Assembly (NCBI GenBank): GCA_000092065.1
Contig: CP000599.1
Length of the DNA: 64,000 bases
Source: Ostreococcus lucimarinus
Taxonomy: Eukaryota
Strand: one strand, 5' to 3'
Below are positions 54,416 through 59,328 of this stretch, one piece after another (positions within the stretch are counted from its first letter, which is position 1; every line of letters starts with the position of its first letter). The notes beneath the pieces were generated by a model. It was given only the letters and a program-made list of their open reading frames with translations, ran no database searches and was not told the DNA's origin. Position numbers and translations under genes: made by a program.

Positions 54416-54793
54416 TCACCGCGACGCGTCGCCGTCGCCGTCCGTCTTCGCCGCGCGTTCCGCCGCGCGTCCTCGCGCGCGAGCGAGCCACGCCGAATCC
54501 TTCCTCTCGTCCCCCCGCGCGCCCCTCGCGTCGCGCGCGCGCGCCGTCGGCGCCGTCGCCGTCGCCGTCGTCGCGCCCGCGCCCGCGCTCGCCGCCAATC
54601 TCTCCCCGCTTCCGCGCGTCGTCGTCGACGCGTCGATGAAAACGCCTCGCCCCGCCGTCGCCGCGTCAATCTCCCCCCCCCGCGAGCGCTGCGCCGCCCG
54701 CGCCCCCTCGAACCGCACCCGCATCGCCGCCAGCGCCTCCCGCGTCGCCGCGTCCGCGATCATCGTCGTCCCGCCGTCGTCGTCGTCGTCGTC

Positions 54794-54829
<36 letters not shown>

Positions 54830-55380
54830 GCGTTCAAACCTCGCCACGTCCGCCGCGCTCGCGACCGCGCGACACGTCGGACACGTCGGACGCGTCACCG
54901 CGCTCCCCCCCTCCCCCCCCCCTTTCGCCCACTTCAAAAAGCACGCGCCGTGAAACGCGTGCCAACACGCGTCCAACCGCGCGCGCGTCTCGCGCGTCGC
55001 CGCCTCGCGACAAATCGCGCACCGCCTCGCCGCGCGTCCCATCGCCCGCGCGCGCGCTCGAGCCGCGCCCAGCACCGCCACGAGATATCCCTCCGTCCGT
55101 TCGAACGCCTCGGCGTCGCGCGCGATCGCCGCCGCGAGCGCGCTCGCCGCGTCGTCGTCGTCCGCGCCTCTGGTGTGTGTAATCATAATCGTCGTCTCAC
55201 TGTTTGGCCATAGGTGTGGATTCGCAATCGTCACGACGACGTCGCACGACGCGTCGGCGTCGTCCCGGTCGTCGGCGCTCGTCGCGCGGTGCGCGACGAC
55301 GACGCGGTCGGTCGTTCGCGACACCGACGGCGCGACGCCGAGGTAGACGCGCGCGGCGTCGAGCTCGGCGTCGAGCGCCA
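54416..55380 (-). CDS. RING-H2 zinc-finger protein (putative E3 ubiquitin ligase)
   Basis: RING-H2 pattern CAICREAATRETRARLDACWHAFHGACFLKW...CPTCR. ATG at 55380-55378. Poly-Asp and poly-Ala tracts encoded by (GTC)n/(GCC)n. Confidence 0.6.
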
Positions 55381-55580
55381 TGGTGTGCGGCGTCGGCGGC
55401 GCGCGCGGGTGACATAGAGTGTTAGGGGTGCGCACTACGACGTTTGGTATCGTATATTGATCGATATTCGTCCTTCGACGCGCGTTCGCGCGCGCGTATC
55501 TGCGCTCGACTCGGCGTCGCGCAACACCTTCCCCCCGCGCGCGCGCGCGCGCGACGGCGCGACGCGACCGACGACGCGCG

Positions 55581-55612
<32 letters not shown>

Positions 55613-55656
55613 CGACGGGGCGCGACGGTCGCGGGACGCGCGCGATCGAGCGCGCG

Positions 55657-56940
55657 ATGGCGACGCGCGAAGGCGGCGCGAAGAAGAATCGCGGCGCGAG
55701 AATCGCGAAACCCTCGATCGACGCGACGATCGTCGGTGGCGCGTGCGTCGTCGCGCTCGCGGGACGCGCGCGCGCGGTGCTCGCGGGAGACGTCCCGTCG
55801 GGGGGCGGCTCGGCCGTGGACGGGTACTTCAACTCCGAGAGCACGCTGAAGAGCGCGGTGGACGCGTGCTGGAGCTCGTCGACGACGGTGAACGCGGCGT
55901 GCGCGGACGGCGCGGTCGGCATCGCGGATTGGAACGTCGGCGACGTGACGAGCATGCGTGACATGTTCTCCGAAAAGGAGGGCTTTAACGCCGACTTGAG
56001 TCGTTGGAACACGAAGTCGGTGACGACCATGAGTGCCATGTTCAACGGCGCGACGAGCTTCAACGGCGACATGCCGAACTGGAACGTCGAGAAGGTGACG
56101 CACATGACTCACATGTTCCGAGACGCGACGAGCTTCAACGGCGACATGCCGAACTGGAACGTCGAGGCGGTGACGAACATGGCTCAAGTGTTCTCCGGCG
56201 CGACGAGCTTCAACGGCGACATCTCGAACTGGAACCCGAAGGCGGTGACGGGCATGTATCGCACGTTCTACGGCGCGACGAGCTTCAACGGCGACATCTC
56301 GAACTGGAACGTCGAGGCGGTGAAGGACATGAGTCAAGTGTTCAACGGCGCGACGAGCTTCAACGGCGACATCTCGAACTGGAACGTCGAGGCGGTGACG
56401 AGCATGCGTGACATGTTCTACGGCGCGACGAACTTCAACGGCGACATCTCAAACTGGAACCCGAAGGCGGTGAAGGACATGAATCAAATGTTCCGAGACG
56501 CGACGAGCTTCAACGGCGACATCTCCGCGTGGAACATCCAAGCCGTTACGGACATGTCTAACATGTTCAACAACGCGCGGGCTTTCGCGCGAGACATCAC
56601 GGGCTGGAACGCGGCGGCGATCGCCGCCGCGCGCGACGCCACCAAAGTTTCCGGCATGTTCAAGAACGCCACGGCGTGGCGCGCGATCTACACCAACACG
56701 CAGACGTCTTACTTTTCGGCGAACGACGGCCCGCCGCATTTGTGGACCGCCGGCGCCGCCGCTCCCGGCGCCGGCGCCGCCGCTCCCGGCGCCTCCGTCG
56801 CAGACTTCCCCGAGTGGGGCGTCGCCCTCGTCGCCCTCTCGCTCGCGCTCTCCACGATCACGTCCATCGTCGTCATCGCGCGCGCGCTGTGCGCGCCCAA
56901 GATTCTCGTTCCCGCCGCGCGGTGGTCCGCGCGCGTCTGA
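55657..56940 (+). CDS. DUF285/BspA-like repeat surface protein with C-terminal transmembrane anchor
   Basis: Nine tandem 25-aa repeats with consensus F.GATSFNGDISNWNVEAVT.M..MF, nearly identical at DNA level (75-nt period, e.g. ggcgcgacgagcttcaacggcgacatctcgaactggaac). This is the repeat type of the 'Mycoplasma protein of unknown function' (DUF285) / BspA-like families. A C-terminal hydrophobic helix follows (VALVALSLALSTITSIVVIARAL). ATG at 55657. Confidence 0.7.
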   Translation: MATREGGAKKNRGARIAKPSIDATIVGGACVVALAGRARAVLAGDVPSGGGSAVDGYFNSESTLKSAVDACWSSSTTVNAACADGAVGIADWNVGDVTSMRDMFSEKEGFNADLSRWNTKSVTTMSAMFNGATSFNGDMPNWNVEKVTHMTHMFRDATSFNGDMPNWNVEAVTNMAQVFSGATSFNGDISNWNPKAVTGMYRTFYGATSFNGDISNWNVEAVKDMSQVFNGATSFNGDISNWNVEAVTSMRDMFYGATNFNGDISNWNPKAVKDMNQMFRDATSFNGDISAWNIQAVTDMSNMFNNARAFARDITGWNAAAIAAARDATKVSGMFKNATAWRAIYTNTQTSYFSANDGPPHLWTAGAAAPGAGAAAPGASVADFPEWGVALVALSLALSTITSIVVIARALCAPKILVPAARWSARV

Positions 56941-57131
56941 GCGCGCCGTCGGCGCGACTTCGACGTCGACGCAACTTTTTATCCACGCAATCAACATCCA
57001 TGCACCGCATTAAACCGTCTTCGAACGCCGCGCGCTCGACGAACCGCGATCGCGGCGCCGACCCTCGACGCGGCGTTCGATACCGACGCCGCGTTCACGG
57101 AGCGCGCCAACGCGCACCTCTGGAACCTATG

Positions 57132-57369
57132 AATGACGCGAATCGCGCATCAGATACCGCATTCACGCGCTCTAACGCGTACATCTCAACCCTGATCCGC
57201 GCGATAAATGACGCGAATCGCGCATCAGATACCGCATTCACGCGCTCTAACGCGTACATCTCAACCCTGATCCGCGCGATAAATGACGCGAATCGCGCAT
57301 CAGATACCGCATTCACGCGCTCTAACGCGTACATCTCAACCCTGATCCGCGCGATAAATGACGCGAATC
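57132..57369. repeat. 75-bp tandem repeat x3.2 in the 5' region of the MiaB-like gene
   Basis: The unit aatgacgcgaatcgcgcatcagataccgcattcacgcgctctaacgcgtacatctcaaccctgatccgcgcgata starts at 57132, 57207, 57282 and, truncated, 57357. The copies are essentially identical. Confidence 0.9.
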
Positions 57370-57498
57370 CCTCGCGCCGCGCGCGGCCGCGGCGTCGGCG
57401 CGACGTCGCACTCGCGCGCGCGCTCGACGCCCGACCGCCGCTCTCGCGCGCGCGCGCCGAATCCGCGCCCTCGCCGAATCCGCGCGCGCTCGCGAGCG

Positions 57499-59328
57499 AT
57501 GGCGACGCCGCGCGCGGCGGCGGCGGCGGTGGCGGCGCGACCGTCGACGCCGCGCCGACGCGCGCGCGCGCGCGCGGGCGACGGGCGACACCTCGACGCG
57601 ACGGCGGACGCGGTGCGCGCGGCGGGCGTCGCGGCGCGGCGCGCGGCGCCGCGAACGGGACGCGCGGAGGACGGGGAGGAGGACGCGCGGGGGCGACGCG
57701 CGGTGTACGTGGAGACGTACGGGTGCCAGATGAACGTGAACGACTCGGAGGTGATGATGGCGGTGCTCGAGGGCGCGGGGTACGACGAGACGAAGGAGGT
57801 GAACGACGCGGACGTGATTCTGATCAACACGTGCGCGATTCGGGATAAGGCGGAGGCGAAAATTTGGCAGCGGTTGGCGTACTTTCGATCGCTGGGGAAC
57901 GGGAAGAAACGGAGCGAAAAGCCGGTGGTGGGCGTGCTGGGATGCATGGCGGAGAGGATCAAGGAGAAGTTGTTGGAGGCGGATAGGCTGGCGGACATCG
58001 TGGCGGGACCGGACGCGTATAGGGATTTGCCGAATCTCATCGACGCCGTCGTCGGGAATCCGGGAGGGAAGGCGATGAACGTGCAGTTGAGCGTGGAGGA
58101 GACGTACGCGGACATCATTCCCGTGCGCGAGGCGGGGTCGCACTCGGCTTTTGTCACCATCATGCGCGGGTGCGACAACGCGTGCGCGTTTTGCATCGTG
58201 CCGTACACGCGCGGACGCGAGCGCTCGCGCGATTTGGCGAGCATCATGTACGAGATTCGTCTTTTGAGCGAACAAGGGGTGAAAGAGGTCACTTTGCTCG
58301 GGCAAAACGTGAACTCGTACGCGGGAGAGCCCGCGAGCGCGACGACGACGGATTTCTTGAGCTCACTGCGAGGCGAATCCAAAGACCCGATCGCCGAGCT
58401 CGCGAACGCGTCGACGGAACGTTTGGCGAGCGCGAGCGGTAGCGCGTTCGTCGGCTACGCCGATGGCTTCGCGAGTCGGTACGATCCCGAGCGCAAGCGA
58501 GCGGGGACGATTCAATTCGCCGAGTTGCTCGATAAAGTCGCGAGCGTGGATCCCGAGATGCGCATTCGTTTCACGTCGCCGCACCCGAAGGATTTCCCCG
58601 ACGACGTCTTGCGAGTGATTCGCGATCGACCCAACGTGTCGAAGTGCTTGCACATGCCCGCGCAGAGCGGGTCGTCGGCTACCTTGGAGCGCATGGCGCG
58701 TGGGTACACGCGCGAGTCTTACTTTGCCCTCATCGATCGCGTCAAGGCGATGATTCCGGGGTGCGCCATCACCACGGATATCATCAGCGGCTTTTGCGGC
58801 GAGACCGAGGACGATCACGAGGACACCGTGAGTTTGATGAGCGCGATCGGATACGAACAAGCGTTCATGTTCGCTTACAGCGAACGCGAGGGCACGGCGG
58901 GGCAAAGACACCAAATCGACGACGTCCCCGAAGACGTGAAGCAGCGGCGTCTGCAGGAAGTCATCGACGCCTTTCGAGCGCGCGCGGCGGAGAAGCAACA
59001 GATGGAGATCGGTTCCACGCATTGCGTGTTGGTGGAGGGTCCGAGTAAGAAAAACTCCGACGAGTGGACGGGGAAGACGGACACATCGAAGTGGGTGGTG
59101 TTCGAAAAGAATGATGCCATCGGCAAGTACGCCGGCGACGAAGACGCGCCGACGAGCGGGTCGTACGGCGTCAAGCCTGGAGATTACGTCGCCGTTCGCG
59201 TCACTGGGTGCAGTACGGGGACGTTATTTGGTCAAGTTCTCGGTAAGACGAGTTTGGTAGAGTTTCAAAACTTGCACGGCGCGCAGTGGACGACGCCAAA
59301 GTCGAGCAACGGCGCGAGCGCGCGTTGA
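57499..59328 (+). CDS. radical-SAM tRNA methylthiotransferase, MiaB/CDK5RAP1 family, organelle-targeted
   Basis: Collinear with MiaB: MTTase N-terminal domain (VYVETYGCQMNVNDSEVM...LINTCAIRDKAE), radical-SAM CxxxCxxC (MRGCDNACAFCIVP), TRAM domain at the C-terminus. A/R-rich presequence. ATG at 57499. TGTAA 9 nt after the stop. Confidence 0.85.
   Translation: MATPRAAAAAVAARPSTPRRRARARAGDGRHLDATADAVRAAGVAARRAAPRTGRAEDGEEDARGRRAVYVETYGCQMNVNDSEVMMAVLEGAGYDETKEVNDADVILINTCAIRDKAEAKIWQRLAYFRSLGNGKKRSEKPVVGVLGCMAERIKEKLLEADRLADIVAGPDAYRDLPNLIDAVVGNPGGKAMNVQLSVEETYADIIPVREAGSHSAFVTIMRGCDNACAFCIVPYTRGRERSRDLASIMYEIRLLSEQGVKEVTLLGQNVNSYAGEPASATTTDFLSSLRGESKDPIAELANASTERLASASGSAFVGYADGFASRYDPERKRAGTIQFAELLDKVASVDPEMRIRFTSPHPKDFPDDVLRVIRDRPNVSKCLHMPAQSGSSATLERMARGYTRESYFALIDRVKAMIPGCAITTDIISGFCGETEDDHEDTVSLMSAIGYEQAFMFAYSEREGTAGQRHQIDDVPEDVKQRRLQEVIDAFRARAAEKQQMEIGSTHCVLVEGPSKKNSDEWTGKTDTSKWVVFEKNDAIGKYAGDEDAPTSGSYGVKPGDYVAVRVTGCSTGTLFGQVLGKTSLVEFQNLHGAQWTTPKSSNGASAR

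Follow-up and report, generated by a model that had tools for sequence, protein, structure and literature searches.

The closest described relatives of the gene analysed here are the PARCELs of Röske et al. 2010 (PMC2996958), a name that stands for Palindromic Amphipathic Repeat Coding ELements. These are 25-residue tandem repeats matched by the profiles PF03382 and TIGR02167, in which a hydrophobic scaffold is conserved and the hydrophilic residues vary; their coding DNA has dyad symmetry, and membrane targeting is frequent among them. They were found in Ostreococcus tauri, O. lucimarinus, Micromonas RCC299 (17 open reading frames, ORFs) and CCMP1545 (8 ORFs), and an association with or mobilisation by mobile elements was proposed for the family, though not as an obligatory one (PMC2996958). 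Here we analysed a stretch of 64,000 nucleotides from O. lucimarinus (contig CP000599.1; the whole stretch is called the window below), in which positions 55657–56940 are a real gene for a membrane-anchored protein of ten 25-residue DUF285/PARCEL repeats. The number of repeats, four residues in each repeat and the presence of the gene itself differ between haplotypes of this locus. We consider it probable that the gene encodes a variable, dispensable, outward-facing surface protein with shuffled units, duplicated from an algal paralogue.

Marine microbes, algae and giant viruses are rich in DUF285/PARCEL proteins, whose algal and viral function has been described as unknown. The same repeat type is found in Mycoplasma DUF285 lipoproteins (LppQ and LppC of M. 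mycoides; Mbov_0838 family), which are displayed on the cell surface as variable antigens. These lipoproteins have an N-terminal lipid anchor, whereas the protein described here has a C-terminal transmembrane (TM) helix, and we saw no counterpart in the window gene of the phase-variation tracts that their AT-rich genes use. In another marine picoalga, Aureococcus anophagefferens, DUF285 genes show strain-specific presence/absence and duplication, and the family also occurs in its giant virus (AaV / Kratosvirus quantuckense). There, the genes are found in the viral genome or in low-GC regions derived from viruses, while the gene in the window has a host-like composition and no close viral copy of it was found in IMG/VR. 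A functional and structural analogue is provided by hypervariable leucine-rich repeat (LRR) proteins, such as lamprey and hagfish VLRs, plant NLR/RLP, Listeria internalins and TpLRR/BspA. Here as there, the hydrophobic scaffold is conserved and variability is found at few positions per coil near the beta-strand, but there is no somatic assembly in the algal case, and its variation is germline and allelic.

Compared with the PARCELs of Mamiellales, the window gene matches the same families of hidden Markov models (HMMs), has 25-residue tandem units at about nine or ten per ORF, and shares the bitopic TM topology with a signal (category B of Röske et al.), with an N-terminal segment that is borderline here. 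Both dyads listed for O. lucimarinus OSTLU_3281 can be recognised in the unit consensus, one centred on ...GAGCTTCAAC..GACAT.TCGAAC..GAAC.TCGA... and the other reading GAACATG...CATGTTC. All defining features of PARCELs are present except dyad symmetry, which is weak here. In contrast, within-species unit-number alleles, position-specific hypervariability and syntenic presence/absence are not part of PMC2996958, which proposed a helical amphipathic structure where our model gives an LRR-type solenoid. In the papers searched, we found no report of within-species unit or presence variation, or of an LRR-like model, for Mamiellophyceae. DUF285/PARCEL arrays in Mamiellales have been in print since 2010 and the nature of such arrays is unchanged by this locus; its additions are the unit-number alleles, the position-specific variation, the presence/absence in a syntenic frame and the LRR-like model.

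Family assignment and the repeat array with its homogenised core

The ORF runs from ATG to TGA on the plus strand and encodes 427 amino acids (aa) plus stop. Pfam DUF285 (PF03382) matches in three stretches with 324.8 bits against a cut-off of 25 (E 2.2e-98), and NCBIfam TIGR02167 (PARCEL repeat-containing surface protein), an HMM of a 26-residue repeat, matches in six stretches with 122.7 bits against a cut-off of 30. An earlier reading of the window made from its letters alone (the sequence-only reading) had placed the protein in DUF285, and these scores confirm the placement. The score for the Mycoplasma lipoprotein family NF045896 (Mbov_0838 type), 204.6 bits, is below the cut-off of 500, which leaves the protein outside this family. 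No lipobox is present in the 427-aa protein, whose anchor is the C-terminal TM helix. The Pfam scan (E <= 0.01) gave no LRR family profile; besides DUF285 it contained just DUF768, below threshold. No solved relative was retrieved when PDB was searched with the protein sequence. The exact 427-aa protein is absent from the protein collection, in which the best match is 85% identical. Several long ORFs overlap the gene on the opposite strand or off-frame, for example 55435–56337 (minus strand, 300 aa), and encode Arg/Val/His-rich repeats; that they are so long seems to follow from high G+C and periodic sequence and does not point to a second gene.

The dipeptide WN occurs ten times between aa 92 and 317 at a spacing of exactly 25 aa, and the array therefore consists of ten in-register 75-nt units (55894–56643). 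Tandem Repeats Finder detects a period of 75 at 56018–56525 (6.8 copies, 83% matches, score 655) and also a weaker 225-nt super-period. With an HMM made from the units, eight full units and one partial unit were found in the gene by searching the six-frame translation of the window, and no DUF285 copy was found outside it; with this single copy, the window lends no support to the expanded family of the sequence-only reading. The nine repeats and the consensus of the sequence-only reading were thus essentially right. Its description of the 75-nt repeats as near-identical is overstated: in DNA, units 3–8 are 76–89% identical among themselves. Unit 9 is 72–79% identical to units 3–8, and the values for units 1, 2 and 10 are 44–67%.

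When two of units 3–8 have a residue with degenerate codons in common, the codons agree in 218 of 221 comparisons, while the codon preferences of 15 other window ORFs would give 112. Therefore the similarity of the core is more than codon bias and the recent duplication or conversion is real; units 3–8 are homogenised, as had been proposed for the repeats. The consensus unit is self-complementary at 42 of 75 positions (34.7 ± 2.8 in an amino-acid-preserving null, P 0.015; P 0.03 against shuffled codon order). Unusually stable hairpins from palindromic DNA were rejected, since single-stranded DNA folding of units 3–8 is no more stable than that of shuffled sequence (z -0.71), and only the weak dyad symmetry is left.

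Unit-number alleles and position-specific variation

All alleles derive from metagenome assemblies. Nine environmental proteins of 327–395 aa have termini nearly identical to those of the window protein and contain 6, 6, 6, 7, 7, 8, 8, 8 and 9 in-register units, compared with 10 in the window; the long contig L002 has 8 units. The ten-unit form was found again in the independent metagenome contigs L038 and L040, which contain the same 427-aa ORF with 6 and 15 nt differences in 1284, and L010 likewise has 10 units. The spacing of 75 nt is kept in contigs L001, L010 and L012–L015. Length polymorphism, which the sequence-only reading had expected between strains, is therefore seen: alleles have 6, 7, 8, 9 or 10 units, and their termini hardly differ.

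The first two and the final three units are stable between alleles, and the central units vary in number and sequence. Some central units resemble in-register chimeras of window units; for example, unit 4 of L014 consists of the 5' half of window unit 5 and the 3' half of unit 8. Other unit sequences of the alleles are absent from the window. The public contig L014 opens at 1–60 with an Illumina/Nextera adapter (…GATACGGCGACCACCGAGATCTACAC…TCGTCGGCAGCGTCAGATGTGTATAAG), and its 6-unit allele is therefore treated with caution.

In 29 distinct internal units, the entropy is 0 at A3, T4, F6, N7, G8, D9, W13, N14 and F25, and 2.2–2.9 bits at unit positions 1, 20, 22 and 23. In 27 distinct DNA units, synonymous diversity (πS) is 0.056 and nonsynonymous diversity (πN) 0.005 in the scaffold columns, and πN is 0.584 in the four hypervariable columns. 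At position 22 all codons (27 of 27) are NNT, with the first two bases in nine combinations. Between the window and L038, both amino-acid differences in the repeat region (A176G and G199S) are at positions 22 and 20. This pattern fits recent unit ancestry or conversion together with selection for change at a few positions flanking the beta-ladder. A dN/dS estimate on the C-terminal 60 codons between alleles was discarded, being inflated by misalignment around indels and Ns.

Predicted fold and membrane topology

An AlphaFold2 model was built with 30 homologues. Its pLDDT is about 75–95 over aa 55–345, mostly so across the repeat units, and beta-bridges appear at unit position 20 in units 1–9 and at positions 5–6 in units 3–7. 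From this model the DUF285 array is predicted to fold as an LRR-type solenoid. The solenoid is flanked by caps (Table 1). Cys82, three residues into unit 1 (55900–55902), is the partner of Cys71 in the N-terminal cap, and the two may form a disulphide; a Cys pair of similar spacing is found in the paralogues P0087 and P0108. The C-terminal cap is kept in the alleles and partly in the paralogues.

At the N-terminus, the hydrophobic stretch is borderline (Kyte-Doolittle 1.6 over 19 residues from aa 25) and the model gives a helix at aa 29–43 with low confidence; aa 1–44 are probably a signal peptide or a signal anchor. At the other end, the Kyte-Doolittle mean over 19 residues rises to 2.48 at aa 389–407 (VALVALSLALSTITSIVVI), in agreement with the C-terminal TM helix that the sequence-only reading had noticed. 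The stalk before this helix contains a perfect 21-bp repeat (2.2 copies at 56748–56793, 100% matches in Tandem Repeats Finder) encoding AAAPGAG. Its length varies by allele, as AGAAAPGAS, AGAAAPGAGAAAPGAS or AGAGSGGAGAAAPGAS, through a 7-residue block and an AGSGG variant. The positive-inside rule suggests that the short basic tail is cytoplasmic. From these features we infer a type I membrane protein displaying an LRR-like solenoid.

Presence and absence of the gene at a syntenic locus

The G+C content of the window is 58–71%, and an Rfam scan of it found no rRNA or other RNA family. The host is a green alga of the Mamiellophyceae; for the MiaB-like neighbour of the gene, the nearest named proteins come from Micromonas commoda (72%) and Mantoniella (67%). 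The neighbouring genes encode a sugar transporter, a pyridine-nucleotide oxidoreductase, a DUF2505 protein, CFAP77, a RING finger protein, the MiaB-like protein, a DEAD helicase, Skp1 and a pseudouridine synthase. A protein identical to the MiaB-like neighbour is present on many metagenome contigs. In the contigs that were compared, the flanks are 99.1–99.8% identical to the window (blastn) and the MiaB-like protein is identical.

Between these flanks, a segment of about 1.64 kb with the promoter region, the coding sequence (CDS) and the 3' region is variably present (Table 1). The gene is absent from L004, L005, L008, L036 and L039, the last two of which were found by pattern scan. The interval between the shared anchors, measured between window positions 55490 and 57369, is 1878 bp in the window, 1691 bp in L002, 1478 bp in L010 (which contains Ns), 1385 bp in L003, 475 bp in L004, 400 bp in L005 and 167 bp in L008. 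L003 is 5'-truncated, with the left flank joined to the middle of a repeat unit and the promoter, start codon and signal gone. In gene-less contigs, some of which are 157 kb long, the left flank directly meets a 75-bp non-coding tandem repeat. The gene-less junctions all differ, and every left breakpoint is within 18 bp after 55490. The 19-bp segment of the window at this breakpoint is the exact reverse complement of the sequence in three contigs (Table 1) and is deleted in L010, L012, L038 and L040; the spot has the look of a minor hotspot of rearrangement. The many different junctions speak for repeated secondary deletions at a fragile site rich in CG, and single events may have had either polarity.

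The 5' region of the gene contains, at 55538–55627, a (GAC)n microsatellite and low-complexity DNA rich in CG, and this tract differs in length and sequence between the window and L010, L038 and L040. On the right side, the non-coding repeat lies just upstream of the MiaB-like ORF and overlaps its first ATG. It has 1 copy in L002, 2 in L008, 3 in the window, 4 in L003, 5 in L005 and 6 in L004 (1 to about 6.3 across haplotypes), and many short-read contigs stop there. The unit has no further occurrence in the window. That it might be a relic of the coding unit was rejected, as local alignment of the circularised units scored 16 compared with 13.9 ± 2.1 for shuffled sequence (P 0.21), and the common period of 75 looks coincidental.

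Two sister lineages have the same gene order, with the RING gene directly beside MiaB, and MiaB-like proteins 86% and 78% identical to that of the window. Neither a DUF285 gene nor the 75-bp repeat was found at the syntenic site of these lineages, and therefore the gene is a lineage-specific addition.

Paralogues and origin of the gene

A search with the non-repeat termini alone returned the alleles and a second group (P0087, P0108, P0110 and P0296) with 53–59% identity, whose locus is a different one, flanked by genes for a TCR-domain protein and a protein kinase. The TM-coding stretch of 127 bp is 92.9% identical to that of the paralogue on L034, and outside this stretch the two genes are about 67% identical, a contrast that points to gene conversion or to a strongly constrained membrane anchor. 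P0110, which has a paralogue body and a window-type tail, may be either a genuine recombinant or a chimera made in assembly.

Bacterial relatives reach about 43–53% identity at best, in the repeats only; most of these best ones are proteins of Bacteroidota type that carry type IX secretion sorting domains. Relatives also occur on giant-virus contigs, the best of which in the IMG/VR scan are 48% identical; a recent viral donor is unsupported at such identity. A transposon-like cassette is likewise unsupported, with only CG-rich low-complexity inverted matches and housekeeping neighbours. Segment 55491–57131 lacks terminal inverted repeats, any target-site duplication is at most 2 bp long, and a scan of the neighbouring genes found no transposase, integrase or other mobile-element genes. 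At third codon positions the gene has a G+C content (GC3) of 0.90, which equals or exceeds the values of neighbouring genes. On the basis of the low bacterial and viral identity, the host-like GC3 and the algal-type termini, the immediate origin is most likely an older algal paralogue, duplicated into the intergenic region between RING and MiaB, instead of a recent transfer.

Table 1. Features of the DUF285/PARCEL gene and its surroundings in the window
Feature	Position	Strand	Evidence
Complete intron-less CDS, predicted DUF285/PARCEL type I membrane protein	55657..56940	+	ORF, translation, Pfam PF03382 E 2.2e-98
N-terminal targeting region, aa 1-44: basic stretch, then Ala/Val/Gly-rich ATIVGGACVVALAG	55657..55788	+	hydropathy, model
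N-terminal cap, aa 45-79, with Cys71	55789..55893	+	model helix aa 61-71, Cys positions
Ten in-register 25-aa / 75-nt DUF285 (PARCEL) units	55894..56643	+	WN anchors, unit table, model
Homogenised core, units 3-8	56044..56493	+	nucleotide identity, shared codons, allele variation
C-terminal cap, aa 330-364, KVSGMFKNATAW...PPHLWT, sole N-x-S/T sequon N337	56644..56748	+	translation
Ala/Pro/Gly stalk, aa 365-386	56749..56814	+	translation; Tandem Repeats Finder, 21-bp period
TM-coding stretch shared with paralogue L034 (8953-9079)	56777..56903	+	blastn, 127 bp, 92.9% DNA identity
TM helix, aa 387-411	56815..56889	+	Kyte-Doolittle; model helix aa 388-411
Short basic tail, putatively cytoplasmic, CAPKILVPAARWSARV	56890..56937	+	translation
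Left neighbour, RING-finger protein gene (flank)	54416..55435	-	ORF; Pfam zf-C3HC4 / zf-RING_2 in L002-L005
Right neighbour, MiaB/CDK5RAP1-like radical-SAM methylthiotransferase (synteny anchor)	57358..59328	+	UPF0004, Radical_SAM, TRAM
Presence/absence segment, ~1.64 kb: promoter region, CDS, 3' region	55491..57131	.	blastn, junction sequences
19-bp segment CGCGCGTATCTGCGCTCGA at left breakpoint	55491..55509	.	exact reverse complement in L002, L037, L008
Non-coding perfect 75-bp tandem repeat, 3.2 copies, right border of segment	57132..57369	.	Tandem Repeats Finder, 100% matches

Discussion

We propose that unequal crossing-over, slippage or gene conversion would add, remove and recombine the central units in register. 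In-register exchange would keep the scaffold codons uniform, while selection would favour amino-acid change at positions 1, 20, 22 and 23, which in the model would sit on or beside the beta-ladder of the solenoid. The beta-ladder side is the usual ligand-binding face of LRR proteins. With its variable positions at such a face, the protein would most likely be, by this analogy, a variable binding or adhesion module facing outward on the cell surface, whose ligand may be a virus, a bacterium, a mate or a substrate. A role in cell-cell or cell-virus interaction had already been suggested by the sequence-only reading, and the protein may have one. The gene would be dispensable and repeatedly lost through deletion at the fragile CG-rich site beside the 75-bp minisatellite.

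Several points weigh against this proposal. The surface exposure of the variable positions is putative, being drawn from the DSSP pattern of the model and the LRR analogy. The Nei-Gojobori ratio among units 3–8 is only about 2 overall (pS 0.084, pN 0.179), and it is taken from unit pairs that are non-independent and under gene conversion, which violates the assumptions of dN/dS tests. Short-read assemblers may collapse or mis-join 75-bp repeats, and some of the counts of 6–8 units are possibly artefacts. In L002 (4773–5303) and L003 (4838–5216) the unit anchors are in places spaced 76–79 nt apart and the frame is broken, while the 1971-bp MiaB-like ORF next to the array is intact on both contigs; these arrays are either genuine pseudogenes or carry consensus errors limited to the array. 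Together with the five gene-less haplotypes, the frame-breaking spacings mean that decay is also under way. With a hydrophobic stretch at the N-terminus as weak as 1.6, an internal membrane location or a two-TM hairpin topology is possible. The paralogue of L034/L035 may belong to a species other than that of the window gene.

The signs of decay lead to a different explanation, namely that the gene is a dispensable recent duplicate, a decaying orphan whose variation reflects only how readily a coding minisatellite mutates once constraint is relaxed. Loss in five haplotypes, 5' truncation in one, the broken spacings of L002 and L003 and the empty syntenic site of two sister lineages would all fit, but relaxed constraint agrees poorly with a scaffold under strong purifying selection (πN 0.005 vs πS 0.056), with an intact ORF and identical termini in at least ten alleles, and with variation limited to four positions per unit instead of being even. 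We therefore regard simple decay as unlikely. Mis-assembled repeats as the source of the ten-unit array or of the allelic series are hardly credible: many short-read contigs do break at the locus, units such as unit 4 of L014 look chimeric and L014 carries adapter sequence, yet ten units were recovered independently in L038, L040 and L010 (6 and 15 of 1284 nt off in L038 and L040), the alleles hold unit sequences foreign to the window, which excludes a collapse of the window array, and the gene-less junctions lie on 157-kb contigs. The assembly artefact that the sequence-only reading had allowed for can thus be largely set aside.

Recent horizontal acquisition, a narrower form of the horizontally acquired family that the sequence-only reading had put forward as a candidate, would make the 1.6-kb segment a fresh PARCEL cassette of bacterial or giant-virus source, itself mobile. 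The patchy distribution of the family has been read as horizontal transfer (PMC2996958), movement of DUF285 genes between Aureococcus and its virus has been reported, relatives exist on giant-virus contigs, and the gene is lineage-specific with variable presence at the locus. On the other hand, viral (48%) and bacterial (about 43–53%) identities are low at best and confined to the repeats, the GC3 of 0.90 equals or exceeds that of host genes, the nearest non-allelic relative is the algal paralogue, and the non-repeat termini match algal-type paralogues only, including the 93% identical TM-coding stretch. Neither terminal inverted repeats, nor a target-site duplication >2 bp, nor a nearby transposase or integrase was found. 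We regard recent acquisition as very improbable for the immediate origin. It is also quite improbable that the protein resides in an internal membrane (endoplasmic reticulum, Golgi or vacuole) or passes the membrane twice, instead of being displayed at the plasma membrane. The borderline N-terminal hydrophobic segment, modelled with low confidence, would allow this, whereas the conserved Cys pair of the cap, the stalk, the TM helix and the basic tail appear typical of type I surface proteins, and PARCEL tracts are mostly predicted outside the cell.

In summary, a variable, dispensable, outward-facing surface protein with shuffled units, derived from an algal paralogue, is the probable reading of this gene. 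The locus is a concrete eukaryotic case, anchored by conserved flanks, in which haplotypes differ in repeat number, in four residues per repeat and in gene presence, and this is the variation pattern expected of a surface molecule under fluctuating selection. A more specific and tentative idea, which we hold with low confidence, is that the gene is a germline variable receptor of a wall-less picoalga, LRR-like, diversified by unit shuffling and positive selection, and kept polymorphic by an arms race with prasinoviruses or bacteria; towards prasinoviruses it would act as an adsorption receptor or a decoy. If this were true, DUF285/PARCEL arrays would be an algal counterpart of hypervariable LRR recognition systems, and the syntenic locus would be a tractable marker of host-virus coevolution in natural Mamiellophyceae populations.

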